DNA of 64,000 bases from Fistulifera solaris (GCA_030295235.1 AP026151.1:62001-126000); one strand, 5' to 3'; counted from the first letter of the stretch, positions 43,311 through 64,000 are shown. Numbers and translations are program-made. The notes: a model not told the origin generated them from the letters alone.

Positions 43311-43902
43311 GCACGGATAGCCCGGCTCAAAACATTTCTTTCTTTTATATCTTGCATGCATCCTTTTACATTCAATTACATGTGTCATTATCAAAAGATT
43401 AAGCTGTATCCTAGACTAATTCTTTTCAAAATTATTACGGAGTATTCAAGAACTTTTATTATTTGCAATGCGTTTTGCGCACCGACTCATGACTCATTCT
43501 CATTGCAGTCATGACAAAAGTAATCTTCACTTTGGCTCTATAGTGAAACGGAAACATATCTCTTTGTAAAGATTTTTCGGCTTAAAGAATCGAAGCATGC
43601 AACACAAATGATGATGAAAGCATGTAACATCGTGATTGCGACAATCAGTGCTTACAAAATGCAGATTAGATGATTAAATACGTAGGAGGTTAGCGAGAAT
43701 GAAATATTATTCATGACTGAAATGCAGTCGTGGTAGACTTGAAGAATCACTTTGAGCTTTTTGCAGGCATTTTCGAAGTAGTACAAGTAAAGCAGTTGCG
43801 AGACCTAGATCTGATTATAATGATAGACAACGAGACAAATTGGTGAAAAAGCAGATTAACTAGCGTTGCGGCAAAATTTGTTTAGGACTATTAATTCAAG
43901 AG

Positions 43903-45511
43903 CTAAGGTCGCGATGCGTTCTGTCGCGCGACGCGAATACACCCTTGAATGTTGAGAAACCAACAAATAATTTGATTCCATGGATTTCCACCGCTAGGAC
44001 ACGGACAGTCCTTCTCCGACACATTATCGATTGGTCGACAGCCTACTTGCGATTGTGTCCCTAGACCAGCCCAGGTATAAACCGCATCAAACATATCTTT
44101 GCTCATGACTGGGCCGACATTGGCTCCACCAGATCCCCCGGCGTGATTTCCCAATGCTATATTTTCTTTAGTCAACAATGCACTCCCGGACATGCCTCCC
44201 GCAGTATCGCAGTAATATCGCAGGTAATGCGCACCATTTGAGCGAGCTGAGAAAAAGATTAAAAAAATAAAATCTGGTTAGTCGGAGAGCTCATCCAAAA
44301 GATTTTTAAGGCAGCTGCACTTACCAGGTGGAGAGCATGGCCCGGAAGTCGTCATTTCACCTCGTCTAAAGTCGTATGGGTATCCGGTGATTGTAATATC
44401 GGCTATTCGAGGGTCAATGACACCGTTAGATGAGCTAACGATACTATCGATTGCAACGTAGCCCACAATATCCCCTGGCTTTGTTGGGAGAGAAATAATA
44501 GAGTTAGACGATGTCGAGATTCGCAACATATCTGTAAGGATCAAATGAAGAGATACGTACGTAAACTTCATCACAGCCCAAATCCGGTCGACTGATTGGC
44601 TTGTATGTGACCACCGCCATATCAAAATATCTGTTTCGCGTCTCTCTATACTCTCCAAAAGCCGTAGCATAATCCACCTCCCACATTCCGAATGGTTCGA
44701 GATGTTGATTAGACTCCGAGTCAAAGTACCGCCCCGGCGCTATCCGGGTGATGGGCATAGGTCTTCCTTCGTTGTAATTCCATACACAGTGCGCCGCCGT
44801 TAAAGCAGAAGTCCGTGAAATCATGGTTGCGGTGCACGAGTTGTTGCCCCACCTATAGTCGCTAGCACCAATGGCTCGAAAAGGGTAGAGAGTCGTATCG
44901 GGGACGGCTGAGCGTGTATCGTTCCCTATGATAATCAGGTTTCGGTTTTTGACAATAAACTCGTATCCATCCGCAAGACCTTTGTATAATGTGGTGGGTC
45001 CCAAAGTTTCGTTGAGTAAGGAATAGCGCGACGCATATTCATAGCCGTCGCTGGTAATCCGAACGTAATGCCGATCGATGCCCGTCTCCTCCACTTCGTA
45101 TTCGTCATCGAAAGCAGACATATTCTCCAAATTCTCTATCTTTTTGGCGTATCGTGTACGCTTTGTAACGAATCGAAACTCTTCATCGGCAAATCGGGTA
45201 ATAGTAGCTTCATCGATGACTTCCGAGTTCATGACAAAAGCCGATTCTTCCAAGAGACTTTCGCAAGGCCCCAGACTATCCAATTCGATGCCCTAAAAGC
45301 CGATGAGTAAGACGAAAAGGTGTGAAAGGCGAACTTCTGCTCGTGAACCTACCTGACACCAGGCCAAACATTCATTTGCGTACGTTAATCCGTCAGATCC
45401 GCAGACGGCCGGTCCCATTACAAGGGCGTCCAAACTACAACCGGCACTACAATTGTAGTCGGCTCGAGCGAGTGTGAATGAAGCGGCGAGTAATGACCCA
45501 ATTCGAATCAT
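43903..45511 (-). CDS. Kazal + glutamyl-endopeptidase-like S1 serine protease, copy A
   Basis: Four exons; introns 45293-45352, 44479-44560, 44247-44324. VCGSDGLTYANEC; RNL-IIIGNDTR; TAAHC, DMAV, CDTAGGMSGS. Confidence 0.9.
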
Positions 45512-46436
45512 GGCTTTCGTTTGTGTGTTGATTATGAGCAAGAGATTTATAAAAGATTAGATAATGAACGAGAAAAGGTTTCTTTCTTCTTTGCTTGTGA
45601 AAATAATGAGGACTTTCATTCCATTTTTGTTATATCTTATTGTCGTGTTTGTCAAGAATTGGCGACTGTCACTTGTTTAGTACACCATCGATATTTTTAG
45701 GTAGAAGGCGAATGTCGCAGACTCTCGCAGATCGCCAAAACCGTGTCGATCTTTTGTGTTGATCACAAAATAATCGGCCAAGGAAGAATACGACCATAAC
45801 AAACAAAATTTGAGATAGCAATGATATGTCATCGCGTCTCTCCGTATGACAGTGGCGTTTTCGTTGTATTTGCATCGTAGCGTCGCTCCTGTGACTTGGA
45901 GCAGAGAGGAATGGCAAACGCAAACCTCCGTATAGTTCTTTCCGAGTTGCACGCCTCATGAGCCAAAGTCATACGATGACGAGTCGTCCATCCTGTGGAC
46001 TGCACTCGTTATGAAATTGAGTCTCCCATACTGTGTTATCTCATTTTTGGAAGCTCGGAACCGCTGAAGGGCGCAGCATTGTGTTGACGTTGAGAGCTTG
46101 GAGTGAATGTGCGAATTAGAAGAATCGACGGACGACGTCGAGTTCTTGACTGACTCCTCGTCTGCTCAAACACAAAAGCAAGCCATCTCCCAGGCAACTA
46201 TTTTTTGGTTAATTTTCGTTATCATACTCAGTAAAAAAGGAGTAGAACTCTATTCGACGTCAACGAGTAATGGAGGAAAGAGCATGTTTTGGCGTCGACA
46301 AAAATTTCGCTTTACTGGTAAAACATCTCGTCAAAGCGACCAGTCTGTTTTCTGTTTCGGAAAATTCTAATCCGCTGGTATAAACACCGTTGTGAGAGTC
46401 ATCCCGGTGACTCAGCACGGTTCGCAATTCAGCACG

Positions 46437-48077
46437 CTACACCCTCGCTTGAAGGGACGCCAAACACGTTGCAAGGTTGCGGATCCAGCAACGAACGCGA
46501 CTTCTTCGATTGTTGGTGTATTGCGCGCAAGGACAGGAGGTGGGTCGCAACTGGCAATTGAGTGGTTCTTGATTGGCTAGTCCGGCAGTTTGATAAACAA
46601 AATCAAAGTTGATTCGGCTGAACATCACCGCACCATTGGAACTACCAAACCCCATATTGTGAACGCCTAAAATTTGATTTTTGAGTCGAAAGCACTGCAG
46701 ATCCGCTGCTCCCTCCTTCTGTATCACAGTAGTGGAGAATGTAGTTGGGACCATAGCTTTGAGCTTTGAAAAGTAACAAAGAACGTAAGCGAAAACAGCA
46801 GAGCGAGCTAAAAGCGAAGCGATGCTGTACGTACGGGGAGCCGAGCAAAGACCCGAAGTGACCATCTGTTGATTGAAATCGTAAGGATAACCCGTTAAAG
46901 TCATGGTTTGTAATCGCGTATCGGTTACTGATGTATCGGTTCCTGCAACTAGGTCAATGCCCAGGTAGCCGACAATGTCACCCGGCTGTCGTATCAACGA
47001 AAGATACAGTGGAAAAAGCGTCCAAGTGAGAAGAGGCGTTCCATTTAGTCATCCATCACTTGTGCTCAGGAGCAATTGATACTTACGTAAACCTGGGTAT
47101 TGTCACGGCAGGTATAACGTGTGTCGGTGCGCGGCTTGAAAGTAACGACGGCGAGATCCGCCGTCCTGGTCCTGCCATCGATGTATTCTTGCTTCACGGT
47201 GACGTAGTCGACGTCCCAGGTGCCAAACGGTTCCGCAGTGTTGTCGGCCTGCGTAGGATCGATGTAACGAGCCGGTGCTATCCGTGTCATGGGTCTCCAG
47301 CTCCTGGTACTATAATTGTAGGTACAGTGCCCTGCTGTGAGAGCCGATCGGCGCGAGATCATGGTTCCTGTGCATGACGATGGTTGGATGAGATCCAATG
47401 CTCCAATGGTGCGATAGGGAAAAACTGTAGTGTTTGTTATCACAGAGCGAGTGTCATCCCCGATGACGTCCAATGCCCTGTGTCGAAGATTGGTTGAAGT
47501 TTCTTGTGCAATACCCTGATATGGCTGAGTTGATGTCACCTTCGTAGGGGTGCTCGCCTTGGAAATAAATTTGTAGCCCTCGTGAGTCAAACGCACAAGA
47601 ATCTCTGTGGCGGGTACTTGAAGGGGAGAAAAGATATTGGACTCGTCCTCTTCCGATCCTTCTTCTATGATCGGTTCTGTCGAAAATTCGATTTCCTTTG
47701 TAACGAAACGAAAGTTTTCTTTCGCAAACCGATTCATTATTGCACGCGTAATAACTTCCGCGTTTCCAGAGAAATCAGGCATTGTTAATCTATCGGCATC
47801 TCCCGAGCACGGTCCAGAGGTAAATTTTTTGATGCCCTGAAGTTGACGACACGAGTGTTAGGACCGCTAACGACCGCATAGCCGTCACGAGACCACTTAC
47901 TTGACACGAGGCAACGCACCCGTTTACATAAGTAAGCAGGTCTTCGCCACACACTGGACCTCCCATAATAGCAGTATCCAAAGAGCATCCAGCATCGCAG
48001 TTGTATTGTGCAGCAACGCTGGCAAAACAAGAAGCGACGATAAGATATGATGCAATTATGTTCGAGAGTTTCAACAT
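46437..48077 (-). CDS. Kazal + glutamyl-endopeptidase-like S1 serine protease, copy B
   Basis: Introns 47837-47900, 46986-47086, 46764-46834. RAL-DVIGDDTR; TAGHC, DLAV, CDTEGGSSGS. One A-run frameshift at ~46680. Confidence 0.88.
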
Positions 48078-49003
48078 CTTCGGCGTTTCCTTTATGTTTC
48101 GAACTTTCTTTTGACTGAATTGTTGGCTTTCACTTTGCGGACAAAGCGCGTCCAAATCTTACGACAAGTACTCCGTAGTTCAAATGAGTGTTTTCGAGCG
48201 CCAATGACATGGCCTCGATAATGAGGACGAGAAAATTCACATTTTTGGTTTTTCCGTTGCGCTGTCATCACGAATAGATAGAAAATTTTGTACAGAAAGT
48301 CTTCCGAAGAATAATGATCCGGCATTCCAACGGCTTTCAAATAGAGAGAAACAGCGTTAAATATTGAATTACATAAAGTGTCTAATTGCTAAGTACACCA
48401 AGGAAATTACTCTAAGAGAGTTCGTGGTAAATAATGACTCAAAGTGACCCACAAAGTGGAACATCGGGTCACATCGTAATAACACAGGTGTCCAATCAGA
48501 TGCAACGTTTGCCTTTTCGTGCACCTTTTGATTTTTGATTTCGCGAACGCAAAAACATAATGAGAGAATTCATTCGGTCGTCTTTTGTTATTCAAGTGAG
48601 TCGGGAGAGGATAATAATCGTTTGAAATTCTCTAATAAAGCATTTGTAGGTTTGATGTCTCCTAGATGCGCTGCTGGCGTGACTTTTGCTAACGGTAGAA
48701 TCATCAAGACATCGATCACTTGTTGCTGTTGCCCAAGCTGAAGCTAGCAAGGGCCGATCCATACAAAAGTGACAGCTTTACTAAAGCGCAAAGCTATGGG
48801 AAGCAAAGCAGATAAAGCCAATTGACCACAGCATGTCTTTTTTGTTTCCATTACCCAGATACGGACTCAGAAGCGCAGGTCCGTGGTGTAGATTAAAAAT
48901 GTACCTACATTGTGGAGATTGCAAAGTATATTTTAAACGGGCTTAATGATGCTGATTATGAGTTATACACAAGCCTCGTTGGCCAGACGCATAAAGTTGA
49001 CTA

Positions 49004-50593
49004 CTAACGGGCCAAACAAGCACCAAAGTTGCGTAGATTACATAGCAGTCGTGCAATTCTTCTGCTGCCGAACTCTGAACATGTGCAAGTTTGGGGCGCT
49101 TGACTCGTTAGCCCAGCCCAACTGGAAACAATGTCGAAATATTCGGGAGTCAGAACCGTGGCTCCATTGATTGTGCCTGATTGTGTTATCGGATTGTTAT
49201 GCGCTCCATTGTGGACGCCCAACACTATGTTGTCACTCGTCAAAGTTACGGCGCCACTCATCCCGGGTGTCGTGTCACTTTAGAGGTTTCATAGGAACGG
49301 CAGTTGTGCTTTAATGAGAAGCCAGAAATAATCAAAGCTGTTTGGTCGAACCACCACTCCTCACTTACCATGTGTGATAGATATACTTTGGCTTGGTGGA
49401 AAATGCTGCGATAAGAACGAGTCAAAGTCTGAGTAACTTGGAAAATGACCAAGTAATGATGAATACCCTCTCAAAACTTACGTGCAGTGGAACAGAGGCC
49501 TGTTGTGATCATCTTATGTTTCATATCGTATGGGTATCCTGTGATGGTCATGGTCGAGAATCGCGCATCGGTGACGTTTGCATTATCTTCCCCTACACGG
49601 TCAATGGACAAGTATCCGACAAAATCCCCAGGATAGACCGAAAAAATACCCAGAAAACGTCTCCTTCGCTTCTTGAACGTAACCACTCCCATGTCATAAA
49701 TTTCATCGCCTGATTCCTCATATCCCTTAAAGTAATTTGTGTAGTCGACGTCCCAAGTCCCAAAGGGTTCCGTGGTGTTATCACTCTGCTCAGGATTATA
49801 ATAACGACCTGGTGCGAACCGAATAACGTCATAAGGCTTTTTGGCCGCTCTATCGTAAAGGCAATGCGCCGCGGTGATACCAGAGGTCGGACTAATCATG
49901 GTAATCGTGCACCCAGATTCCGAGAAATCGAAATCTAAGCCTCCCATGGTCCGATAGGGAAAGATCGTCGAGTCCGGAACCATCGTCCTCGTGTCTTCTC
50001 CAACCACCACTAATTTTCGCTTGCGAAGACCCGGTTGATTCTCCGCAATACGGCCCTCGTAAGAAGGCGTGGGGCCCTGGATTTTGGCAAATGACTTGAC
50101 TTGGGAAATGAATTTGTATCCCTCACTGGTGACGCGTACGGTATCGAATCCATCCGGCGATAGAGACGATGAAAAGACATTCGAGTTGTGTACGAAATCG
50201 CGAATTGGATTTCTTGAAAAATCGATCTCTTTTGTGACGAATCGGAAACTTTCTTTCGCAAATCGACTCATAATTTCTCGCGTAATTACTTCGGTTTGAC
50301 CCGTAAGGTCCATCTGCTCAACGCGGTCTCCTTCACCCCCACAAGAGCCCGCAGTAAATTTGATGCCCTACACGAACGCGTTAGTACTCGCACGGAAGAA
50401 GCCATGTAACGGCAATGACACTTACTTGACAAAGCGCGAGACATCCGTTGGCGTAACTGATTCCATCGGCTCCGCAAACAGGTTGCCCCATGACGGTTGG
50501 ATCGAGACTGCAACCCGCATCGCAATTGTATTGTGCCGCTGCACGAGCGATCGCAAGGAGGAGAAGAAGTAAAGCGTTCCACATGTTGCGCAT
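49004..50593 (-). CDS. Kazal + glutamyl-endopeptidase-like S1 serine protease, copy C
   Basis: Introns 50368-50425, 49406-49481, 49278-49368 (37-nt exon between the last two). RKL-VVVGEDTR; TAAHC, DMGV, CDTTPGMSGA. Confidence 0.88.
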
Positions 50594-51298
50594 TCGATTG
50601 GAAGATCTTGGCTTTCGAAAACGCAAACGCCTTTTGGAAATGACAGCACCTTCCGATGCAACGCTGAAGAACATTTCCAACTGAAGTCATTCGGCGGGGC
50701 GGGCTCGGAGCAATTCCGAGGGCTTTATACAAAACACGTCTAAAAAAATTCGTGTGGTCTTGTCTGTACTTGACCTTGTTATCTAAAAAGTCCGCAAAGA
50801 CACTAAACCATTTTTGGCAAGATCCGTAAGTACTAAGTACCTAAAATTATAGTAAATATAAAACGCGCTAACCGACCATTTCCCTTTAATAAAATGATCA
50901 ACGGCTGCAAAGTATCGAGCGGGGAGAGAGAAGCTTTTTTTCGCTATGACCTCATTTCATTTTTTTTCTGTTTTCAAACTGGAAACTAAAACCTCGTTCT
51001 ACTCCTCCGAAATCCATGTTCCGAGAAAAAAAATAGCCGTTACTTGGATCGATCATCATTCGAGCTTCGAACGCGTGCTTTGTATGTGCAATATGTGATG
51101 ACGGAGGAAAGGTTTGTTTGTCTCATGTGAAGAGGCGTGCAAAGGAGCCATTTGAAATCGACGATGTAAAACCAAAGATACGCTAAAGTTTTGAAGGTCT
51201 TTATTAAACGTGTACTTGTTAATTGGAAAACAAAAACAATGATGACGTTACTATAACACTCTCTACAATCGCGGATGTGAGACACACACACTAGCTAT

Positions 51299-51927
51299 GC
51301 CCACAATTTTCTGGACACGTGAAAAAAGCACCTCCCCACATTTTCTGGACACGTGAAAAAGCACCTCCCCACATTTTCTGGACACGTGAAAAAAGCACTT
51401 GCCCACATTTTCTGGAGAAGTGAAAAAAGCACATCCCCACATTTTCTGGACACGTGAAAAATCATTTCCCCACATTTTCTAGACACGTGAAAAAGCGCAT
51501 CTCCACATTTTTTGGCCACGTCAAACATGTACTTGCCCACATTTTCTGGAAAGTCAACAATGCACATGCCCACCTTTTTCTGGAGACGTGAAAAAAGCAC
51601 ATGCCCACATTTTCTGGACTCGTGAAAAACACATTCCCACATTTTCTGGAGAAGTGAAAAAGCACTTGCCCACATTTCCTGGACACGTGAAAATAACGCT
51701 TCCCCACATTTTCTGGAGACGTGAAAAAACACATCCCCACATTTTCTGGACACGTGAAAAACACCTCCCCACATTTTCTGGAAACGTGAAAACAACCCAC
51801 CCCCACATTTTCTAAAAGTGAAAAAAAACGCTCGCCCACATTTCCTGGACAAGTGAAAGTAACGCTTGCCCATATTTTCTGGATACGTGAAATAACCCTC
51901 GCCCACATTTTCTGGAGACGTGAAAAT
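51299..51927. repeat. Minisatellite, ~19 copies of ~32-34 bp (cccacattttctggacacgtgaaaaaagcac)
   Basis: Direct inspection; the short ORFs called here in several frames are repeat artefacts. Confidence 0.95.
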
Positions 51928-52165
51928 AAAACATTGTTAAGAATAGTCCTTTTCGTAAATTTTTTAGAAAAAAGTGTCTAATTCTGCTTCAAACGCTAGA
52001 GTAGAAGGTCGTTAGGTGCATATTGCAAATACGCTTTCTAGTTTTGATAGATGTTTTGGTGAATTAACGCGCGAATATCTCATGTGAGTCTAGTGTACTT
52101 GTACAGTTGCCACTTGAGGCTAGAGCTTCGAAGGGCATGATATGCAGCAAGATTTAGCGGATTTA

Positions 52166-53792
52166 TCAAATTCGGTTCGCGCTTTCCAGTGCCAGCCGCA
52201 AACAACCTCGAAAGTTTATAAACCAACAAATTGCTCGCTGTGACGGATTGGTTTGTGATGAACAGGGACACGCGTTTGATGCTGAGCATACGAATGCCCG
52301 TTGGTCTGCTAGTCCTGCCCAAGTATATACGGAATCAAAGAGTTGGTCCTTTAGAACAGCACCTCCATTGCGACTGGATACCCAATTTCCATGAGCATGG
52401 ACACCGACAGCAACATTGTTCGGGAGTAAGAAGCTACTTCCGCTCATCCCCGCAACCGTATCGCAAAAATGCCAAATATAGTGTGAACCGCCTGACAATG
52501 CTATCATATAATATGAAAGGATGAGCGTCATATATTCCGACATTATCTCGCATCTTGTCGCTAGCTTCCCACTTACCTTCGCGAGAACACGCGTTAGAGG
52601 TGACCATCTTTCCAAAATAGTCGTTCGGATAGCCAGTAACAGTGAGAGAGGCCAAGCGCGGATCATTCACGGCAGAACTTGTTCCTAAGACTCGATCGAT
52701 TCCAACAAATCCAACGACGTCGCCCGGCTTTTACCAGGAAGACAGAGCCAAATTGAGGCGACAGCACTTCATTGAATTGCGAAAGCACAGAGATATACTT
52801 ACGTAGACGTTGGAGCAACCGAGATCGGGGCGATTGGATGGCTTAAACGTGACGACAGCCATGTCAAACTGTTCGTCTTTTTCTTTGTAATTCTGGAATG
52901 TTGTCGTATAATCCACATCCCACGTTCCATAAGGATCTATCATACTACCAGTCGAAGCATCCACGTATCGTCCTGGAGCCACCTTCATCATCGGAAGCGG
53001 CTCGTTGGTGCTCGTTCGCCAAACACAATGACCGGCTGTTAACGCTGAAGTCCGAGAAATCATTGTAACTGTGCAGATGCTGGTCCCTTTGGTATAATTA
53101 TAGTCCGCGGAACCGATGGCACGAAAGGGAAAAGCGGTCGTATCTGGAACAATGCTACGAGTGTCTGTTCCGATGACAATTAAATTTCGATCACGAAGAA
53201 GCTTTCGGTCAACTTGACCAGCAAGACCCTCGTTCGCAGCACTGGAACCTGGAGTACCAGTTGATTGTGTGGATTCCAACGGAGCCATGAACTCGTAACC
53301 TTCGCTAGTAATACGCAAAAAGTGGGAACGAAGAGGGACGCCGAGACGATCCACCAAGTCGGATTCTACGACATCTTCGTAATCATCGAGCTGTGTAGCA
53401 AATTTGACTCGCTTTGTCACAAAACGAAAGCTCTCGTGCGCGAACCGATTCATCACATCCATTGTTATCACATCAGCACTTCCTGGAAAATCAAACCCAG
53501 ATAATCGGCTTTCATTCATTCCGTCACATGACCCGTAATTGAATTTAGTGACGCCCTGTACAACAGTCAGATCAACCAGTCGTTAGTCTCTTTGTCTGCT
53601 GCATCATGCAATGCAACACTTTTGTGCACTTACTTGACACCACGCCACACACGCATTTTGATAAGTAAAGCCCTCGTCGTCGCATACCGATGGACCCATT
53701 ATGCTTCCATCGAGAGAACATCCTACGTTACAATCATACTGCGACGCCACGCAGGTAAAGGACGACAGAATTAACACTAGTGTCTTTCGCAT
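52166..53792 (-). CDS. Kazal + glutamyl-endopeptidase-like S1 serine protease, copy D
   Basis: Introns 53556-53633, 52728-52802, 52501-52576. RNL-IVIGTDTR; TAGHC, DMAV, CDTVAGMSGS. Confidence 0.9.
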
Positions 53793-55002
53793 TTGTCTCT
53801 TCAGGATTTTTGAACGTTAAATGAAATCAATATAGACACAAAGTTGTTTCACCGATCGGCGGATGATAATGACGGCATTGTTGCGTACTGGTAGGGAATA
53901 AAGGTCTTTGCTTCCGCTTTTGAGACGTCGGCGCGGGCCGAAAATTTCTATTTATTGGTGACACGTCTTAAATACCCAAAATTACGAAATACAAAAGTGT
54001 TGAGTTATTTCGTTCGCGGTTCATCAACTTGTTTCCCAATTAAATTGTTCTGTGAAAATTGTGGACAGTATACTTTTTATTGTAGTCAATGTCCTTATTT
54101 ACTTTATTTATCTTTGTCGTCCGTCGTCCTGTCGTCCATCATCCATCATCCGTCATCCGTCATCCGCATTGAACATGGAGGATGGAGGGAGAATTTGACG
54201 TGCACCTTCCAATCCCAACGGAAATCTATCGGATGTCGTTCTAGAGCGGAGAACGAATGAAAGTCCACCATCATTGGTGGAGAAATTTTCAGGAACTGCA
54301 ATCCACTAGGGTGGCGTCCGTCATCAATCAGACAGCAAACATTTGAAAGACGAGAACGTTGCTTGCCGATTACAACGTCTAGATCGGCAAATGCACTTCT
54401 CTCGTGGCGAACTGCGCATTTTCCGATGATGACGGCAATAACAACAGAATCTAATCTCTAGAGAATCATAGACAAAAAGTCGAGTTCCACCTTCCTTGGG
54501 ATCGCATTTACCTCTCTGTGAGCCTTTATGAGAAAAATATTTCGTGAGAGGGAGAATCGAATCAAGTTTATTGGACGAACACACCAATGATAGTCGAAAG
54601 GTCTTTTCGCAAATTTAAGGAGAACAAAAGATACAGCTAAAATGATGTTGGTGGACCTTCACTTGTGTTTTTCTTCTTAAACATAAGGTATCACTTGCGA
54701 AGATGATGGCAACGAGGGCGACAACCATCGAGCATTCATAAAAGGTGCAGAAAATGCCCTTCAACGCAGTGGAAGTCGATGTAACAATTGAAATCAGTTG
54801 CTGTTATCTAAAATGTGCAAGTAGGTAAATGCTACTGAGAAGAGTTTAGGCTTTCCAGTTTAACTTTTTTTGATTGCGATGCGAGGTGGTAGGCATCTCT
54901 CGGGTAAGCTACTGGTCAATAGATATCCATGAAGTGAAAACACTTACCAGTATCGTTTGTGCGATAAAACGACACAAAAGTATCTTAGTTCGCAGATTAT
55001 TT

Positions 55003-57189
55003 TTACATCAGTCGTCTCTTCTTGCCACCTTTCCCACTTGAGCTTTTCTTGGAGCTACTACTATACTTTTTCTGTTTCTTCTTTTTGCCGCCCTTGCCTT
55101 TACCGGAATACGGTTGTGATACCGGAGCTGCGACTGGATTTGTCGGATTCCTGACAGGTTGGGTCGGAAGAATATCCGCAGTCGGCCCAACAAAAGTGGG
55201 TGATGTCACGGGGCTGCCGACGGGCAATGCTTGAGGCACTGTTGCAGGCGGCACAACGGGTCTCGGAACGGGGATGATCTCAGGCACGGGAGCAGGTAGA
55301 GCAACGGGAATGGCGACGGGCGCCGCCTGAGGCACTGGTGCGGGAGGCACAACGGGTCTGGGAACGGGCACGATCTCTGACACAGGAGGAGGAAGCAGAA
55401 CCGGGCTAGGAACGGGCACGATCTGAGGAACCGGAGCCGGGAGCACAATGGGGCTGATGACTTTCACTGGCTGGGCCACTGGAGCGGGCTGTGGCGCTGC
55501 GACTGGTAGAACGATAGGGCTGATGACTTTCACTGGCTGAGACACTGGAGCGGGTTCTGTTTCACGTGTTGGACCAGTAACCTGCGAAGGGGTTGGCGCC
55601 TGCAGAACAATTGGAGACAGTCCTGGTGAAGGTTGTCTTTGCGGAGCTGATACAGGTTTTTTGAACCGGAGGGGCAACTGGTTGTACAACCGGTGATAAT
55701 ACCTCAGTTCGAGAACACAAGCTTTGACCTTTCCCATGTCCAGCCCATTCATAGATAGATGCATACAAGCGAGTCGTCATCATCACAGCCCCATTCATGC
55801 TTGTTGTTGCGGTCTGAACTCCATGGGTATGAACTCCTAAAGCGATGTTTCCCTCCACGATGACACTAGATCCGGAATTTCCTCCGACGGTGTCACAGTA
55901 GTGATTTATATAGTTAGCCCTGCGACTTTCAGGAGCTAGAATGGAAATCGGAGGGTGTTTTTGTGAGTTTGTGGCGACAAGGAATAATTATAGTACATAG
56001 AGTTAGCGTTATTCGACTTACCTCGATCGCACGGACCGGAGGTCGCCATTTGTCGATTATAGTCGTACGGATAGCCGGTGATCACCATCGTGTTCAAGCG
56101 GCTATCCACAACTCGTCCATCCACTTCAGCCGGACGATCAAGTCCGATATGGCCTAAAGCGTCTCCGGGCTAAGATAGAAAGAGAGTCTGAGTGAGAGAG
56201 TGGTTTTGGACGTCCTTTGATAATCCAGAGGTACTTACGTATAGCTCCTTACAGGTAGAAAGATTGTTGCGGATACGTGGTTTATAGGTCACAACCGCAA
56301 TGTCGAAATTAGTTTGTCCAAGCTGCTGAAAGTTCCCAAACAACGAAACGTAATCCACTTCCCACGTTCCAAAGGGTTCCGCCGTCCCGTCTCTCTTTGT
56401 TGCATCACGAAATCTTGCCGGAGCAATCGCAGTCATATTCATAGGCCCCTTCCTGTTCGTATTCCAGACACAATGTCCTGCCGTCAGTGCCGAGGTTCGG
56501 CTGATGAGCGTTAGAGTACAGCCTCCTTCTCCCCACCAATAATCAGCATTAGCTATAGTACGGAACGGGTAACGAGTTGTATCCGCAACGGGAACTCTCG
56601 AGTCTTGTCCGATCAAGACCAACTCTCTACGAGTCGCATTGCCCTCGCCGTCGTCATCCAGTCCGTTTTCGCCTAAAAGCCCTAGTTGCGGCGCTACTGG
56701 CTGGAGGAGCGACTCCTCTTCAAACATCAATGTCGTTCGATACTCGTATCCTTCGGGCGTGAATCGATAATTGGGAATAAACTGGTCATCCATTTCCTCC
56801 AGGAAACCATCGTCCGTTTCATTGATCATTTGCTCCTCGAGCAGGTAGCGGATATCTTCTTCGAAATTAGTCGATGGTAGACGCTTTCCAACGAAACGAT
56901 AATCCGAAAAACGTGTCATGGTACTCATGGGAATAACTTGCGGATCCGACGAGACGAAGGACTCTTGGAAAGGATCTTCTCCTTCGCAGACACCCAAACT
57001 AGCAACGGTAATGTTTTGACATACCGCCAAACATTCGTTTAGATACGTGAGATTGTCATCTCCACACACTGGAGGTCCCATAAGGCTAGCATCCAAGCTG
57101 CAGCCGACGTTGCAATCATATGTTGTCTGTGACGCAACGATCGAAAGAACAGAGGCCAACGCCACGAGATGTAGGAGAGCTTCTTTCAT
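55003..57189 (-). CDS. Kazal + glutamyl-endopeptidase-like protease, copy E, with Pro/Val-rich stalk and Lys/Ser/Gly tail
   Basis: ATG 57189; introns 56170-56238 and 55936-56021. REL-VLIGQDSR; TAGHC, DIAV, CDTVGGNSGS. An A-run frameshift at ~55657-55662 enters ORF 55003-55764. Confidence 0.85.
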
Positions 57190-57672
57190 GATGCTCTTCA
57201 CTGGAATTCTGATTGTTCTTTTGCGTCTTTGCTTTTCTTGATGGTTGCTTTGGTTTATGTCTGTATTGTTGGAAATTGCTGACACTTCTTTCGAACGATC
57301 GGAGAAAGCATTTTCGAAAATGTGGACTTGAAATCTTTCTTTCGCACCGCCTAACGCTCCAAATTCTCGCCTCCATAAATGTGTATCCTATCAATTCAGT
57401 ACAAGTTAATCAGCATTTAGGAGATTTCCTTCAACCGCGAATATTCTTTTACGCAGTTAGCGATAAGCGTCTTCCGTTGTGTACCGCATGAGACATTTGT
57501 CTGTCCGTTGGCTCGATGGGAGGGTGAAAAAGCTCCGCCAAGGCGCCAAGGCTCGTCCGCCGTCGCGCGTGTGCACGAAAAGAACAACAACAACAACACG
57601 CAGCGACGAAAGGGCAACAATCCTTGGCAATCGTCCCATTCTTTAATTCTTCTTTCTATTATCGAGACTATA

Positions 57673-59138
57673 ATGCCTTTAAAAATCTTTCTGTCGATCT
57701 ATAGGCATTCAATTGTACTGCTTGTCTTCTTTCTGGCGCTCTCCAGCAGTCAATCTTCATCTTCTTATGACTGTGAAAACGAGGGATGCCCATGGACTGT
57801 TGCTCCTCCTGTTTGCGGTGTGAACGGCGTAACCTATGCAAATGAGTGTTTAGCTTTTGCCAAGTGAGTAGTTCCGCTTCCTTCACTAAGCCTGTCATGA
57901 TGCTCTTGCTGTATCGTGTGGAGGATGCTTTGTCATCGAAACAAGGATTTGCAGTTTTTTCTTTCTCTGCCCGTACTTAATCTTACTTCTTTTCCTCGCA
58001 GAATATACCAATTGCTTCCATCGGCCCTTGTTCCGGCGATGGCGATATTGCTTCTATTCCTTATGACGATGGCACGAATGCGACTATATCAATCATGCAG
58101 CGGTTTCGTAACGAGAATTTTATGCTGACAGGAAGAAGGAATCTAGATGATCTCGCACTTCCAGAAAACAATCCAACGTTTCATTTAGAGGAGCGAAAAG
58201 ACGATTCGATTCTCGAACAACAACCCTTGTTGTGGAGTCGTTTTACGTCAGATGGTTATGTCTATACGGCGGTTGTGACAGACGAGGATAACAGACGATT
58301 CTTACAAGAGTTGCAAAACATTTACGAGTCACGTAGCAATCGCTCCTTGATTGTCATAGGTCCTGACACACGAAAGGTTGTCACCGACAACCAGGATCGC
58401 TTGCCTTACTCTCCCATTGTTGAACTAGACTACGGGTTTGGGAATTCAGAGGGTGGATGTACTGGGACATTAATTGGGAAAAGTTCGGTTCTCACGGCGG
58501 CCCATTGTTTGTACAATTTCGTGGAGAAACAATTCACTAATCCCTTACGCATGGCTCCTGGTCGGTATCGTCAAGGAACCAATACAATTGAGCCTCACGG
58601 ACTCTTCGGCTTTCGCTATTCGACCTTTTTCACTACGTATCAATCGACAGGAGACGCACGCTACGATATGGGCGTCGCTACGTACAATGCAAACAGCCAA
58701 GGCAAATTTCCAGGTCAACTCGCAGGTACGCTTTGCTTGGCAGAAGCCGCGACACAAAAGCTTACGGCAGAAACTATTTTAGCTGGCTATCCGATGGATT
58801 TTCTTGACGGAAATCTAGCGGAATCTCGGGGTTGCAAGTGGAGTCTTGAGACTGGGATCATTTCACATGACTGTGATACAACAGGTGGACAATCCGGGGC
58901 CCCTATCGTCTCCTCGATGTCCGAAATGCTGGGAATTCACATCGGATATAATCCCAATACTTTTATCAACATTGCGCTCGGTTGGAACAATGCTACTTAC
59001 AGTTCGGTGTATGCATGGGCTCCCGATGCCAGGAGTTGTCCGGATCGAAGATTTTGTAGCAACTGCCCTGCCCTCGAGGGTCCTTTGAGGCGTACACTGT
59101 GTTCTCTGGTGTGCCTCTTGTTCGGTAATGCGGAATGA
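57673..59138 (+). CDS. Kazal + glutamyl-endopeptidase-like S1 serine protease, copy F (most divergent)
   Basis: Kazal exon needs one extra T at 57855-57858 to read AFCQ; intron 57864-58001. RSL-IVIGPDTR; CTGTLIG..VLTAAHC, DMGV, CDTTGGQSGAP. Confidence 0.88.
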
Positions 59139-59323
59139 TACTTCGAGTATGCTGTTGCATTCTTAACAACCTTGGATGAAGGAAATCAACGCACACCAGT
59201 AGAGAAACGCCGAATCAGTGGTCGTTTTATCGCGTGTTGAAGACTTTATTGATTACGCTAAACGCATCCTAGTGTTTAATCTCAAGAGAGATGATGGTGC
59301 AATAGATGGTTCACTGGAGCTGA

Positions 59324-60097
59324 TCATGCCAAGTCGTCACGATCTTTTCGCGTATCCTTTGGCTGAATCTTTTCGAGTAACTTGCTACAAAATTTCCAGG
59401 CTTGAACTGAGGCTGTTTGTAAGGAACCCACGGCTCGTTGTAGTTGCTGCTGCTGTCGGAGAGACTGGTCGTGTGAATAAAGCAATTGACGCAACGTATG
59501 TTGAAGTCGTTGCATCTCATGCTGCAGCATCATAACATGATTGTCTTGACGGTGCAACCGATCGTGTAGCAAGGCGATTTGGCTTTCCTGAGTATGATGA
59601 AGTTGAAGATATAGTTCGCGAAGCTGTGACTGAATGAGCTCCATTGCTTGAGCTTGACTTGCAGATGCAGCGTTGTTCAACGGCGCGAATCGATTCCCGG
59701 ACTCGTCGTGGCCCTGAGACCCATAGAATGGTTCAGCGATCCCTGTGCACATGCGACTTTGGTTTGAGATACTCTGGGACGGCACAGCGTATCTATGATG
59801 CGTGAACCTTTGCTGCAGTGGAATCGGACTGACAGTCACTTCTTCTTCAAGTTTGCTTTTGGGTGCATCAATACTTGCCGCGGAGTCTTTGTTCTTTGAT
59901 TCGCGGTTGACAATCTTTGCGCGGGAACGTTTGCCGGCTATCGCCGTTGCCCCTTGCGGCTCCTCATCGGATGATTCCAAGAGGTAAATTGTCGCTTTGC
60001 GCTTTCGTTGATTGTTCTCCGTCTCGTTCGCCTTTTTCTGCTCGGAAATGAAATCCAGATCTTTCTTGTTGTCAGCAATGCTGCGTGAAGTATTCAT
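59324..60097 (-). CDS. Hypothetical protein with basic (NLS-like) patches and a Gln-rich coiled coil
   Basis: 257-aa ATG ORF; QRKRK and GKRSR motifs; Q/L heptads in the C-terminal third. Confidence 0.55.
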   Translation of the reverse strand: MNTSRSIADNKKDLDFISEQKKANETENNQRKRKATIYLLESSDEEPQGATAIAGKRSRAKIVNRESKNKDSAASIDAPKSKLEEEVTVSPIPLQQRFTHHRYAVPSQSISNQSRMCTGIAEPFYGSQGHDESGNRFAPLNNAASASQAQAMELIQSQLRELYLQLHHTQESQIALLHDRLHRQDNHVMMLQHEMQRLQHTLRQLLYSHDQSLRQQQQLQRAVGSLQTASVQAWKFCSKLLEKIQPKDTRKDRDDLA

Positions 60098-60785
60098 GAT
60101 CGGCTTGTGCGGGTTTAATCAAATGACAGTGAGGAGATGTTATGCTGCAAACAAAAACTATTACGTAGCAACAAAAGTGAGGGAAAGGACACATGAGAAG
60201 CCCCCTGCAAGAATACACCGGATCGTATCATTCTTTTTTGCGCACGGAGGATTCTTCGACGCGATGTTGCAGAGAGGGTGATTGATTCGCCGAGTGTCAC
60301 GCAATCCCGCACGTATCAACATACCTGGACGTTTCGTCTCTTATTTCCTTTTCCTCTGTTTTGAAAAGGTATGTTAATATGAGTAACGGCGATATGGAAT
60401 GCAACAAACTTTTGTCGAGCGATCGTAGCGAACGAATAAAGATGACAATGAAAGAAGAAGGCGATCGAACTGATTGCGTACCAGGTATCCCGTTGACATG
60501 CATGCGTGTATGAACAAACTCGGTGCGACGATGATCTCGTTCCGTTATATCGGTTACCAGTACCATGCGCGACACACAAAGGTACTACGCACGCAAAAGA
60601 GCAACTAGAGAGGTCTCTAGAGTATGTAAACGCAAATGCTAGGCGTCATTGGGGAATAATTCGTTAAAAATTCTACTGTTTAATCTCTACAGAGGGACAG
60701 CGCGATGGACGATTAGGCCTATAATGCCTTCTCTTTCTCTGTGTCAAAGAGGCTTGCAGAAGGGAAAAATGATTTGTACCTGGTA

Positions 60786-62244
60786 GGGGACCTACGGATG
60801 TCCCCACTCATGACGATACGTGATCTGTCCTCCCATCGGTTATTTCTGTCCGTCCCACCGTCCGTACGCGCCAGCAGGACCATGAAACCGTTAACAACAG
60901 TACACAAAAAAGCACTGTTCTATCTTCATAGGTTTACCGCGAGAGTCATTCCAAGTCGGAGAACTCAAATTCTTTCGCATTATCGTATGTGGCAACTTTA
61001 TTAATCGTTCCTTTTCGCGAAAAATATGATGCAACACCCAACTTTCAATTCGACAAACAAAGTTAAGTATGTTTGAAGATCTTTCGATGGATCGCAAGTT
61101 TCGAAAACGACATCACAAAGCGGAAAACAGCGGTGGCAGACGTTCCTTCACGGTCGTTTAGACTGACTCTGGATGATTTATCTACAAAGTCATGTAATTC
61201 TGATCACCGTAAAGTCTAAACAATCACTTTTTCCCTTTCAATTTGGTCCTTTCCCAAGGAAGGACTCGTCGTTTACTAAGATAATTTTATTGAGAAATTA
61301 GCGTTCGTGACCGGACTCGTCCTTTACGTAGGGAAGATGTAGGGAAAATTTATTGAGAAAACCAGCGTTCGTGACCGGACTCGTCCTTTACGAAGGGAAA
61401 ATGTAGGGAAAAGTAATTGAGAAAACTAGCGTTCGTGACCGGACTCGTCCGTTACGAAGGGAAAATGTAGGGAAAATTAATTGAGAAATTAGCGTTCGTG
61501 ACCGGACTCGTCCTTTACGAAGGGTAAATAATGATTAAGGACGTATAAAAATGTAGGGAAAGTTTATTGAGAAAACTAGACTACTTGTACGTACATCGAA
61601 AAATAGTGAGAGAAGTAACTTTCGTTGTTGGATTCCTTAGAGTTTGGTCTCGTTACCGAAGCGAATATTGTTGCAAGCATCTCCTATAACAATTAAATAA
61701 CAATATCACTTTCATGAAGAAACGAGACTAATCCTCATCAACTTATTGCAACGAAATTATGTCGCTATATAAACTATTCTTTATTACCTCGCTCGCCTTG
61801 TTTCGTCGTCGGCAAGCCCGATTTGTTGCGCTTGACTGGGACGGCTTCCTAAAAGTACCAAGATTGATTTGGACTTTGAGATAAAGGCACATCGTAATTT
61901 GCGGTGTAATTAATTGAACGACTGACTACTCTTTTTTCGTTTTCGACGATGACAGAAATTGTGACATCATCTGGTAGCTTCATTGCTGCTTCAATATATG
62001 CTGGAACCGTTGCTTTTGGACTCTGATTAATTCCTTTTCGTGTTGCCCATACCGTCACGTTGGGCGGAGCATTGTCTCCGACTTCGCAAAAAAAAAAAGA
62101 TGTGTGCTATTGCACGGTGTGAAGGGAGAGCCGTTGAGAGGCCGGCTGGCGTGGCCGGCAGGCGTTTGCTTATTCGCTTTCGAGTTACACGTGGAAGTGA
62201 CGTCATGGGGGTATCGTCATGAGTGGGGACATCCGTAGGTCCCC
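60786..62244. mobile_element. Non-autonomous TIR DNA transposon (1459 bp) with 34-bp perfect TIRs and flanking TA
   Basis: 60786-60819 GGGGACCTACGGATGTCCCCACTCATGACGATAC is the exact reverse complement of 62211-62244; TA at 60784-60785 and 62245-62246; no recognisable transposase. Confidence 0.85.
61262..61579. repeat. ~64-bp tandem repeat (4 copies plus partials) inside the TIR element
   Basis: gcgttcgtgaccggactcgtcc at 61301, 61365, 61429 and 61492. Confidence 0.95.
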
Positions 62245-62699
62245 TAAAGTCGTTGCACGGTTGAGTGCTATTTGTTTGAAGAAAAATGAATGAACTCGGT
62301 GCGACGGTCATTCCTACGATGTGACACACACATTGTGGGCGTATGCGAAAAACTTAGACGTGGATACTGAAAGCCCAATGACAACACGAAAGAACACAAC
62401 TACGTACAGTATTTCTATATTTATCAATACCGTTTGACGCTGGATCGCTACTGGAAAATTGAAGTTTGATAAAGAAATAATAGGAAATAGTATCAGGTTT
62501 TTATCGGAAGAGTTTTCGTCACAGTAGACAGTTGTCGTGCGAATTTGTCCGAAGTCCGAAATTTTGAAACTCAACGGTCACAACGGCGCACCTCGGGGAC
62601 AAAAAGAAAAACGAAAAAATATTGCCACCCAAGAAGGAAAACACAACAACAATAGGATTCGAGAGCCTTGCTTTGCTAACAACCACTTCCTCAATCAAC

Positions 62700-64000
62700 A
62701 TGACTTGGTATTCGTTTCTCAGTATATCAATAGCTATAATAGCAGTGAGTTTGCTCGCACCAAGCAGTCTCACTGTGGTCGTTTCAGCACAAGAAGTACA
62801 ACAACCGACCTACGATTGTCGAACCGGCTGTAGTTTGGATGCCAACATCAATGGACCTCCTGTGTGCGGCATCGATCAACTGACTTATTTGAATGAATGT
62901 TTAGCGGTGTGTCAAAACGTGGCGATCGTACATTACGGTCCGTGCAATCAAGATGGTTCGATTTCCGAAAGTGAGCTCTCCACCGATTCAGAGGTAGTTA
63001 CGATGGAGCTCATGACACGATTTATATCACGAGGATATCGTTTCGTGTCGAAAAACACCAGATTTCTGAGTCAGCCGGAGAATATAGAAGAGTCGGTTGT
63101 TGTGAGTGCGGCCGAAAGCGCGAGTGTTGGGGCTGTGGAAGACATTGAGCCGTATTTCGTTTTATTCACTCCCGATGGATATGAATACGCTTATCGTGCC
63201 ACCGACTCGTTGCCTTCGTATCCTGGACCGACACCGTTGTATATGGGAATGCAACAGCTACGGGAACGTAACTTAGCTATCATCGGTGCCGACACGCGAA
63301 CGGCCATCACGAATACTCGAGCCTATCCGTATCGGACGATCGGCGAGGCCGACTTTGGTACGCTCGAAGGCGGCTGCACGTTAACCATGATTTCGCGCAA
63401 TGCAGCAATCACAGCTGGGCACTGTGTTTACAATTTTCAAAACAAAGTTCCTATTCAAATGAAACGCATTGCGCCAGGGAGATATAGAGACAGTTCCGGA
63501 AACACGGTAGAACCCTTTGGTACCTGGGAAGTGGAAACGATGCAAACTTTTGGGCAATTCAAAGCACAGGGAAATATGACATTCGATTTGGCAGTAGTGA
63601 CGTTTGCACCAGAGACACGCGACAACATGCAGAATTGTCCATACGTCTATCCTGGAGATGTCGTTGGGTTCCTTTCATTAGATAGAGCTCAAACCAGCGG
63701 AGGGCGCGTCAGTGATAGTCGACTCGCGTCTTCCACTATTACCGGATACCCTGCAGACTTTCCGAATGGTGTAATGGCAACATCAGGAACGTGCTCCAAA
63801 GGTAGGTCATATTTTCGGGGACGAGTACGTTTAGCTTTGACCGTAATACCGATATCCTCATTCTTCGCATTCTCTCAAGCATGGCATTCTGATCACGAAC
63901 ATTTTGCCTACCATTACTGCGATACGTTTGGTGGGAATTCCGGGTCAGCAGTGATCACGAGTGGAAATGTTGTAATAGGAGAGCACGCGTATGGCTTCTA
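62700..64000 (+). CDS. Kazal + glutamyl-endopeptidase-like S1 serine protease, copy G (3' truncated by the window; absent from the ORF track)
   Basis: Hand translation from ATG 62700: MTWYSFLSISIAII..YDCRTGCSLDANINGPPVCGIDQLTYLNECLAVCQ..RNL-AIIGADTR..TAGHC..DLAV; intron 63802-63879; CDTFGGNSGS..GEHAYG. Confidence 0.9.
   Translation, partial: MTWYSFLSISIAIIAVSLLAPSSLTVVVSAQEVQQPTYDCRTGCSLDANINGPPVCGIDQLTYLNECLAVCQNVAIVHYGPCNQDGSISESELSTDSEVVTMELMTRFISRGYRFVSKNTRFLSQPENIEESVVVSAAESASVGAVEDIEPYFVLFTPDGYEYAYRATDSLPSYPGPTPLYMGMQQLRERNLAIIGADTRTAITNTRAYPYRTIGEADFGTLEGGCTLTMISRNAAITAGHCVYNFQNKVPIQMKRIAPGRYRDSSGNTVEPFGTWEVETMQTFGQFKAQGNMTFDLAVVTFAPETRDNMQNCPYVYPGDVVGFLSLDRAQTSGGRVSDSRLASSTITGYPADFPNGVMATSGTCSKGRSYFRGRVRLALTVIPISSFFAFSQAWHSDHEHFAYHYCDTFGGNSGSAVITSGNVVIGEHAYGF

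Follow-up and report, generated by a model that had tools for sequence, protein, structure and literature searches.

Seven Kazal-bearing V8-type pre-pro-protease genes arrayed in the diatom Fistulifera solaris, with a putative R-x-L processing junction

Described relatives and the seven-gene array

The closest described counterpart of the genes reported here is Chlamydomonas reinhardtii Cre06.g267750 ('V8 proteinase'), which looks secreted and has volvocine orthologues. The relevant passage of a 2021 review notes its Kazal domain at the N-terminus, its V8-type domain at the C-terminus, and bacterial homologues with the protease only (PMC8643629). In that passage horizontal transfer is inferred and inhibition is still to be tested (PMC8643629). 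Here we analyse 64,000 nucleotides of the diatom Fistulifera solaris (GCA_030295235.1 AP026151.1:62001-126000; this whole stretch is called the window, and positions are counted from its first letter), in which positions 43903-64000 hold seven genes (A-G), all encoding pre-pro-proteases with a Kazal module. Genes A-E lie on the minus strand and F and G on the plus strand. Hence, the diatom has an array of seven, whereas the review describes one green-algal locus (PMC8643629).

Staphylococcus aureus V8 and the Bacillus intermedius glutamyl endopeptidase (GSE; PDB 1p3c) share with the window genes the fold, the order of the triad, the motif (V/I)-I-G-x-D-x-R, which begins at residue 1 of the mature bacterial enzyme, and the D-T / G-V-H residues. 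These bacterial enzymes differ in that a Kazal module, introns and a Cys-rich or Pro-rich tail are all absent, and identity is ~24-29%. In the nearest bacterial group, the pro-region ends in Glu, whereas in the window genes it ends in R-x-L. Kazal-like modules are also known outside this family. The EPI-type inhibitors of oomycetes, which are stramenopiles, are secreted, stand-alone proteins that are not fused to a protease, and HtrA proteases belong to another subfamily, form trimers and carry a PDZ domain. Animal HTRA1, HTRA3 and HTRA4 resemble the window genes in being secreted and in having a Kazal-like module N-terminal to an S1-clan protease, and Pfam Trypsin_2 matches both; no homology between the two fusions is implied. 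HTRA1 has an incomplete Kazal-like domain, described as non-inhibitory in an excerpt of one paper (PMC11252331).

The exons of the seven genes were modelled by choosing GT-AG introns that leave a single open frame and are consistent across paralogues (Table 1), and tblastn of the products of genes A and F against the whole window gave no further copy upstream of 43903. In the uncorrected window, the frame is broken in B, E and F. We compared contigs of four public runs (X1-X4) with positions 43901-63900 in 30 bins. X1 covers 30 of 30 bins without joints, as genomic DNA of this organism would. In X2, a metagenome from a different study, 83% of the sampled words of a probe stretch (55500-59200) are present, and its contigs are 95-100% alike to 43901-63900. 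Coverage by X3 and X4 is limited to 15 and 11 of the 30 bins, respectively, and both have GT-AG joints; on these two grounds we read them as RNA and call them RNA-like below.

We found that the contigs disagree with the window at three T runs. Gene B breaks at a T5 run at 46678, past the catalytic Ser, where the window has one base too many (absent in X1 at depth 19.8 of 19.8 and in X2 at 9.99 of 9.99). Gene E breaks at a T6 run at 55657, ahead of its Pro-rich tail, again with one base too many, which is absent in all four runs. Gene F breaks at a T4 run after 57854, between Kazal Cys4 and Cys5, where the window is one T short (extra T in X1, 17.8 of 17.8, and X2, 10.9 of 10.9). All three corrections reopen the frame, with B open to its stop and F regaining Cys5 followed by Gln. 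Hence, these are assembly errors and all seven genes are intact. B and F as pseudogenes, and E as a shortened gene, are ruled out by the read contigs at the three homopolymer sites.

The RNA-like contigs confirm four predicted introns across C, E and G. For gene C, X3 joins 49405/49482 and skips 76 nt (intron 49481-49406), and its 9-nt loose end at 49369 equals the start of the last exon. For gene E, X3 and X4 join 56169/56239 and 55935/56022 (introns 56238-56170 and 56021-55936) and cover 54951-55376 and 55459-55935, the Pro-rich tail included. For gene G, both skip 78 nt, GT..AG, at 63798/63877 (a cut three places rightward fits equally) and cover 62644-63233, the Kazal/pro part, and 63320-63798; no listed contig spans from Kazal to protease.

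Protease, prodomain and junction

We found the triad motifs TA(A/G)HC, D(M/L/I)(A/G)V and G.SG(S/A), in that order, in all seven genes, which also carry CDT..G.SG(S/A) and G.H. In gene F these motifs align with the catalytic motifs of V8 and 1p3c, and its best PDB sequences are V8 (1.2e-12), exfoliative toxin C (7e-12) and 1p3c (5e-11). Profile alignment with the bacterial group gave E 2.3e-55. The AlphaFold model of P0006 (FisN_9Lh369), the homeologue of gene C with the full architecture, was built from a 75-row alignment and has a mean predicted local distance difference test (pLDDT) of 83.3 and a predicted template modelling score (pTM) of 0.84. In Foldseek, this model is matched best by 1p3c (E 1.9e-14, template modelling (TM) score 0.88, root-mean-square deviation (rmsd) 2.4 A, 251 columns), followed by exfoliative toxins, E. 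coli YdgD, V8 (TM 0.77-0.80) and Spl proteases. Pfam Trypsin and Trypsin_2 scores are modest (32.2 and 32.2 bits for gene F exon 2), and 10 single-exon pieces of open reading frame (ORF) gave weak scores throughout (Kazal match in 4/10, trypsin-type in 4/10, none in 4/10). By both sequence and modelled fold, the protease is of the bacterial V8/glutamyl endopeptidase type (S1B-like) and not an S1A trypsin, as the initial annotation had proposed.

The T of C-D-T and the H of G-x-H, which we take to be residues 190 and 213, are kept in all seven genes, and in gene F C-D-T and G-I-H face I-D-T and G-V-H of 1p3c. That annotation had linked this pair to Glu/Asp specificity, and the conserved pocket residues do point to such a specificity. 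Its description of seven paralogues that combine a signal peptide, a six-Cys Kazal domain, a propeptide and a protease with the triad likewise stands, as the motifs occur in 7/7 genes, with base corrections in B, E and F and with G cut by the window end.

A hydrophobic N-terminus, read from the sequence by eye as a predicted signal peptide, opens each of the seven products and is followed by the non-classical Kazal pattern C-x3/4-C-x7/11-C-x6-Y-x3-C-x3-C-x9/10-C. Six genes have C-x3-C-x11-C-x6-Y-x3-C-x3-C-x9/10-C; the gene F loop is x7, and its Cys5 is visible only with the read-backed base correction. Pfam Kazal_2 scores are 31.6 bits for F exon 1, 28.0 for A, 22.2 for E and 18.1 for G (cut-off 22.8). 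The remaining pro-region carries RF..F.FV and (S/P)(D/E)GY in 7/7 genes.

Folded alone, the pro-region of gene G gave a pTM of 0.69, with pLDDT 94-96 in the Kazal module and 83-96 in two beta elements. Its Kazal part resembles solved inhibitors, namely Galleria SPI2 (Z 3.8), rhodniin (3.4) and infestin 1 (3.3; rmsd 1.6 over 40 residues), and all these matches are confined to model residues 5-56. The top Foldseek rows were LDTI, the ovomucoid third domain, SPINK1 and follistatin-type domains, none with E <= 0.001, owing to the small size of the domain. For the pro-region beyond Kazal, no fold match was listed in searches with the whole pro-region, that part not having been searched alone. Since the Kazal part resembles working non-classical inhibitors and the fold is confident, the modelled prodomain looks like one folded unit containing a real Kazal module.

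At the putative junction between pro-region and protease, all seven genes have R-x-L-x-(V/I/L)(I/V)-G-x-D-(T/S)-R. In gene F, I-V-I-G directly follows R-S-L, and its first residue is the one aligned with residue 1 of mature 1p3c. In solved Bacillus enzyme, the freed mature N-terminus contributes to the Glu-binding pocket. The junction of the nearest bacterial group is an invariant E/SVIG (the slash marks the junction), and profile alignment places the Leu column opposite the bacterial Glu column. R-x-L stands at the junction in 24 of the 34 Kazal-bearing relatives with a recognisable N-terminal motif, and the linker that holds it is predicted to be disordered (pLDDT 36-49, residues 151-171 of P0006). 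In diatoms, silaffins, cingulins, silacidins and silicanin are also processed at R-x-L, and excerpts of two papers call the protease that cuts it "yet unknown" (PMC5525289; PMC4557024); the junction thus coincides with a motif whose protease has stayed unknown since silaffins were described.

We favour, with about even confidence, a reading in which the products are secreted zymogens activated at R-x-L by another protease, with the Kazal module acting in trans or structurally. The precursor would run from the signal peptide through a folded prodomain (Kazal plus two beta elements) and a disordered linker ending in R-x-L to the protease and its tail. The enzyme would stay latent until a different protease cut after the Leu of R-x-L, and in diatoms the RXL-processing activity of the secretory pathway is a candidate activator. 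This cut would free the x-(V/I)-I-G N-terminus, which is residue 1 in the solved Bacillus enzyme. The Kazal module would be a structural part of the prodomain and, once released, a possible trans inhibitor of Leu-preferring proteases.

The predicted specificity of the inhibitor bears on this reading. In Kazal domains, P1 is usually the second residue after Cys2, which predicts Leu as P1 in six window genes and Trp in the seventh, F. Among the 41 family members compared, the predicted P1 is Leu in 20, Met in 4, Gly in 4, Lys in 3, Asp in 2 and Glu in none. As P1 is Leu, Met or Trp and never Glu, it mismatches the Glu/Asp pocket; hence, a structural or trans role is more likely than a plug of the protein's own active site, which is the less likely role. 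These predictions raise the question of why an inhibitor should be fused to a protease whose specificity it does not share.

The initial annotation had suggested a self-inhibited zymogen, in which the Kazal reactive loop would occupy its own catalytic cleft until the prodomain is removed or degraded. We regard this as unlikely, and the P1 predictions weaken it. The prodomain is compact and confidently modelled, as is the whole precursor (pTM 0.84), the Kazal part is similar to working inhibitors, and P2-P1-P1' is an invariant S-L-D in six paralogues of only 36-48% overall identity, which suggests that the partner is conserved and speaks against an arms race; this conservation keeps self-inhibition alive. 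However, Glu is P1 in 0/41 members and Asp in 2/41, whereas the residues of the pocket agree with those of Glu-specific enzymes. The Glu-specific Streptomyces enzyme is reportedly not inhibited by turkey ovomucoid third domain with Leu at P1, but is inhibited by the P1-Glu variant. Moreover, such enzymes are already latent before the N-terminus is freed, which makes a plug unnecessary, and the Kazal-like domain of HTRA1 also counts against a plug, being non-inhibitory according to the excerpt cited above (PMC11252331).

A released Kazal module could instead be exported together with the enzyme, so that one cleavage would yield a Glu/Asp protease for extracellular digestion and an inhibitor against foreign Leu-preferring proteases. 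The targets would be bacterial or grazer proteases of the subtilisin, chymotrypsin and elastase types, which would suit a P1 of Leu or Met in 24/41 members; the disordered linker with its conserved cut site and the Ricin_B or Hint modules of relatives, typical of extracellular proteins, agree with this, and oomycetes use stand-alone secreted Kazal inhibitors likewise. However, the reactive-site residues are conserved between paralogues, whereas inhibitors in an arms race would be expected to be hypervariable, and the idea would further depend on expression under biotic challenge and on survival of the Kazal module after cleavage. We consider this double export possible but doubtful.

Since the junction and the Kazal P1 both have Leu, there is also a small chance that the enzymes themselves are R-x-L-specific. 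The family would then have shifted from Glu to R-x-L specificity, cut its own junction and been restrained by its own P1-Leu Kazal module, and in diatoms it would be the RXL endopeptidase, a protease not yet known according to the excerpts cited above (PMC5525289; PMC4557024). If so, these enzymes would mature silaffins, cingulins and other wall proteins, and gene E would be a wall-bound form. The bacterial junction has Glu at P1, as expected of self-processing, and the eukaryotic junction P1 and the commonest Kazal P1 are both Leu. The tail after the protease is short and Cys-rich except in gene E, whose last exon extends instead into a Pro-rich repeat spacer (~55650-55100, with 48/96-bp tandem repeats) and a Lys/Ser-rich end with the terminus K-K-R-R-L-M. 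We presume a likeness of this R-R-L-M end to the Lys/Ser-rich silaffin peptides with RRIL/RRNL ends; the tail has no Pfam match and might anchor the product of gene E, alone among the paralogues, in the cell wall. However, the pocket residues (D-T before the Ser motif, G-x-H, and H-A-Y-G in gene G) are those of the bacterial group and of Glu-specific 1p3c, P3 of the Kazal loop is Cys, so the loop is unable to mimic R-x-L, and the family and its R-x-L junction occur in silica-free green algae. A switch to R-x-L specificity is therefore very improbable.

Several points weigh against activation of a zymogen at R-x-L by a diatom processing protease. The junction motif also occurs in green-algal members, such as R-S-L in P0088, and green algae are without silica, so the link to diatom RXL may be a coincidence or a wider algal feature. 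The S-L-D invariance would suit an endogenous partner that is itself conserved, and the protease of the same protein could be that partner. Glu/Asp specificity is predicted from conserved residues, and both the P1 assignments, which depend on the Cys2+2 rule, and the presumed contribution of the N-terminus to the S1 pocket are drawn from the general background on these families. The first intron of A-D and F, from the Kazal exon to exon 2, has no splice joint among the listed contigs, and RNA-like contigs are listed over C, E and G only, with none over A nor over most of B, D and F. Finally, literature searches turned up no activity, N-terminal or localisation data for any member, only the 2021 review.

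Distribution and origin of the family

In a search of 1.84 billion representatives with P0006 as query, 1409 proteins reached E <= 0.001, of which 33 also reached E <= 1e-30, and many matches extend from the Kazal module through the end of the protease. A Pfam scan of 38 relatives gave Kazal and trypsin-type domains together (E <= 0.001) in 24 of them. Named relatives are P0088 from Astrephomene gubernaculifera and proteins of Chlamydomonas schloesseri, Edaphochlamys, Volvox africanus, V. reticuliferus, C. eustigma and Gonium, and 6/7 named volvocine proteins have both Pfam domains. The green-algal P0088 and P0076 differ from the window genes in the Kazal loop (x7 vs x11), in a P1 of Lys and in falling in a different subclade of the tree. 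The remark in the initial annotation that no described family with this architecture was known does not hold, since the passage on Cre06.g267750 had already noted it (PMC8643629). Hence, the fusion is neither new nor specific to Fistulifera, and the array is an expanded diatom branch of a known, biochemically uncharacterised family.

The family is widespread, with dozens of clusters bearing the Kazal fusion, none of them studied at the bench. Literature searches found Cre06.g267750 named in no paper besides the review, and those aimed at Fistulifera with Kazal and at V8-like with Kazal returned nothing. Among relatives P0041, P0062, P0046, P0090 and P0016, we observed additional C-terminal modules, Hint in two and Ricin_B in three; by these domain matches, the protease cassette is joined with several extracellular modules in other eukaryotes. 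By language-model features, animal PRSS23 and fungal 'glutamyl endopeptidase' clusters are nearest to P0006 (0.95, 0.94, 0.94); these are a lead only, with shared-feature counts of 155-165 against a guide value of 170 and no Kazal reported.

A scan with a 7-row bacterial alignment gave 249 confirmed named bacterial relatives from marine Alphaproteobacteria, Bdellovibrionota, Actinomycetota, Bacillota and cyanobacteria, and the Kazal module is found in 0/35 of the bacterial relatives placed in the tree. BLASTP and hhalign gave no sign of homology between bacterial and algal propeptides, aligning the protease only, plus a few residues ahead of it.

Trees were built leaving out rows without both His and Ser motifs (45 of 80 loci) as well as P0001, P0002, P0004, P0013 and P0014 as duplicates of window genes; the 58-row IQ-TREE analysis also left out rows without the Kazal motif and 17 of the 35 bacterial rows. 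In the 134-row FastTree, all 35 named bacteria fall inside a 56-row set without Kazal rows (support 91), and the window genes inside a 63-row set (support 96). The IQ-TREE analysis recovered a diatom-type group of 27 rows (support 99) and grouped 16/18 named bacteria (support 99). A constraint uniting all 40 Kazal-bearing rows changed the log-likelihood (lnL) by +6.24, with a p value of 0.684 in the approximately unbiased test (p-AU), so the united arrangement had the better likelihood and was not rejected; Cre06.g267750 was not among the sequences. The trees are read without a root or a direction of transfer. A single fusion followed by spread is compatible with these sequences and is not proven by them.

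We found three intron positions shared among paralogues: after Cys5-Gln in A, B, C, D and F, before P-G-D in A, B, D and E, and, in phase 1, upstream of C-D-T in every gene except F. Hence, the introns are older than the duplications. Gene B is sister to P0173 (FisN_9Lh370) in both trees, and, since B and C pair with their own homeologues, the array is older than the merger of the two subgenomes. The scenario of a horizontally acquired protease that was fused to Kazal, gained introns and was amplified thus stood in part: the bacterial type of the protease, the shared introns and the tandem amplification agree with it, whereas the sequences of the relatives exclude an origin of the fusion in the Fistulifera lineage.

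Pairwise identity, far above chance throughout, is 36-48% within A-E and G and 31-34% between F and the others, by which gene F is a divergent member. Its placement varies: FastTree groups it with P0065, P0107 and P0067, and IQ-TREE, where those rows were omitted, places it with the other paralogues on a long branch.

An array of seven genes in an oil-producing diatom, with RNA-like cover of at least three of them, points to an extracellular role, for which protein scavenging, interaction with bacteria and wall maturation are candidates.

Gene structures and neighbouring sequence

The coordinates of the genes and of motifs located in them are given in Table 1. The introns of gene A (60, 82 and 78 nt, GT-AG) and of gene D (78, 75 and 76 nt, GTAAGT donors) leave open frames, a single one in A. 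Gene C is without the intron before PGD, and an additional intron interrupts its Cys codon of C-D-T. As had been annotated, E and G encode Kazal and protease in one exon: exon 1 alone holds Kazal, the pro-region and the first half of the protease in E, and Kazal, the pro-region and most of the protease in G. Gene F exon 1 comprises the signal peptide and Kazal Cys1-Cys5, and exon 2 Kazal Cys6, the pro-region and the entire protease. Since the window end cuts gene G, its C-terminus was taken from P0001, for a full length of 484 aa.

Table 1. Coordinates of the seven genes and of selected motifs in the window
Feature	Position	Strand	Details
Gene A	45511-43903	-	462 aa; exons 45511-45353, 45292-44561, 44478-44325, 44246-43903
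Gene A Kazal Cys1-Cys4	45451-45368	-	motif scan
Gene A RNL junction motif	44944-44912	-	motif scan
Gene A catalytic His motif	44800-44786	-	
Gene A Asp motif	44626-44612	-	
Gene A CDT..SGS	44211-44182	-	
Gene B	48077-46437	-	467 aa; exons 48077-47901, 47836-47087, 46985-46835, 46763-46437
Gene B RAL junction motif	47479-47447	-	
Gene C	50593-49004	-	454 aa; exons 50593-50426, 50367-49482, 49405-49369, 49277-49004
Gene D	53792-52166	-	465 aa; exons 53792-53634, 53555-52803, 52727-52577, 52500-52166
Gene D RNL junction motif	53189-53157	-	
Gene E	57189-55003	-	676 aa; exons 57189-56239, 56169-56022, 55935-55003; identical to NCBI P0004 (FisN_9Hh367)
Gene F	57673-59138	+	442 aa; exon 1 57673-57863, intron 57864-58001 (138 nt), exon 2 58002-59138
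Gene G	62700-64000, beyond window end	+	exon 1 62700-63801, in-frame intron 63802-63879, exon 2 from 63880
Gene G RNL junction motif	63267-63299	+	

Three stored models are wrong: P0001 (510 aa) keeps the gene G intron, and P0014 (gene C) and P0013 retain introns and lack the Kazal exon. In practical terms, three apparent pseudogenes are homopolymer errors and three stored models need correction. Further indels relative to the read contigs occur at 48838, 51025, 54193 and 60234 (single-base) and at 62088 (two-base). The assembly seems to carry systematic indel errors, so other apparent frameshifts in this genome need care.

Between F and G, the ORF 59324-60118 (minus strand) encodes 264 aa rich in Gln and Ser; X3 RNA-like contigs cover 59381-59681, and it has no convincing Pfam match (Rab11-FIP3, E 0.006, misses the cut-off). 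Between C and D, positions 51300-51926 form a 33/67-bp tandem repeat of ~19 copies with long spurious ORFs on both strands. In X1 and X2, contigs over this repeat are three to four times as deep as over its flanks and show many loose ends, and hence further copies of the unit probably lie elsewhere in the genome. The ORF 42507-43310 (plus strand), immediately before the array, aligns with the C-terminal portion of Pfam Beta_propel (PF09826, E 2.6e-44) and is probably the last exon of a neighbouring secreted beta-propeller gene. As a separate observation, the X2 metagenome indicates that an identical or very near Fistulifera strain occurs in an environmental sample.

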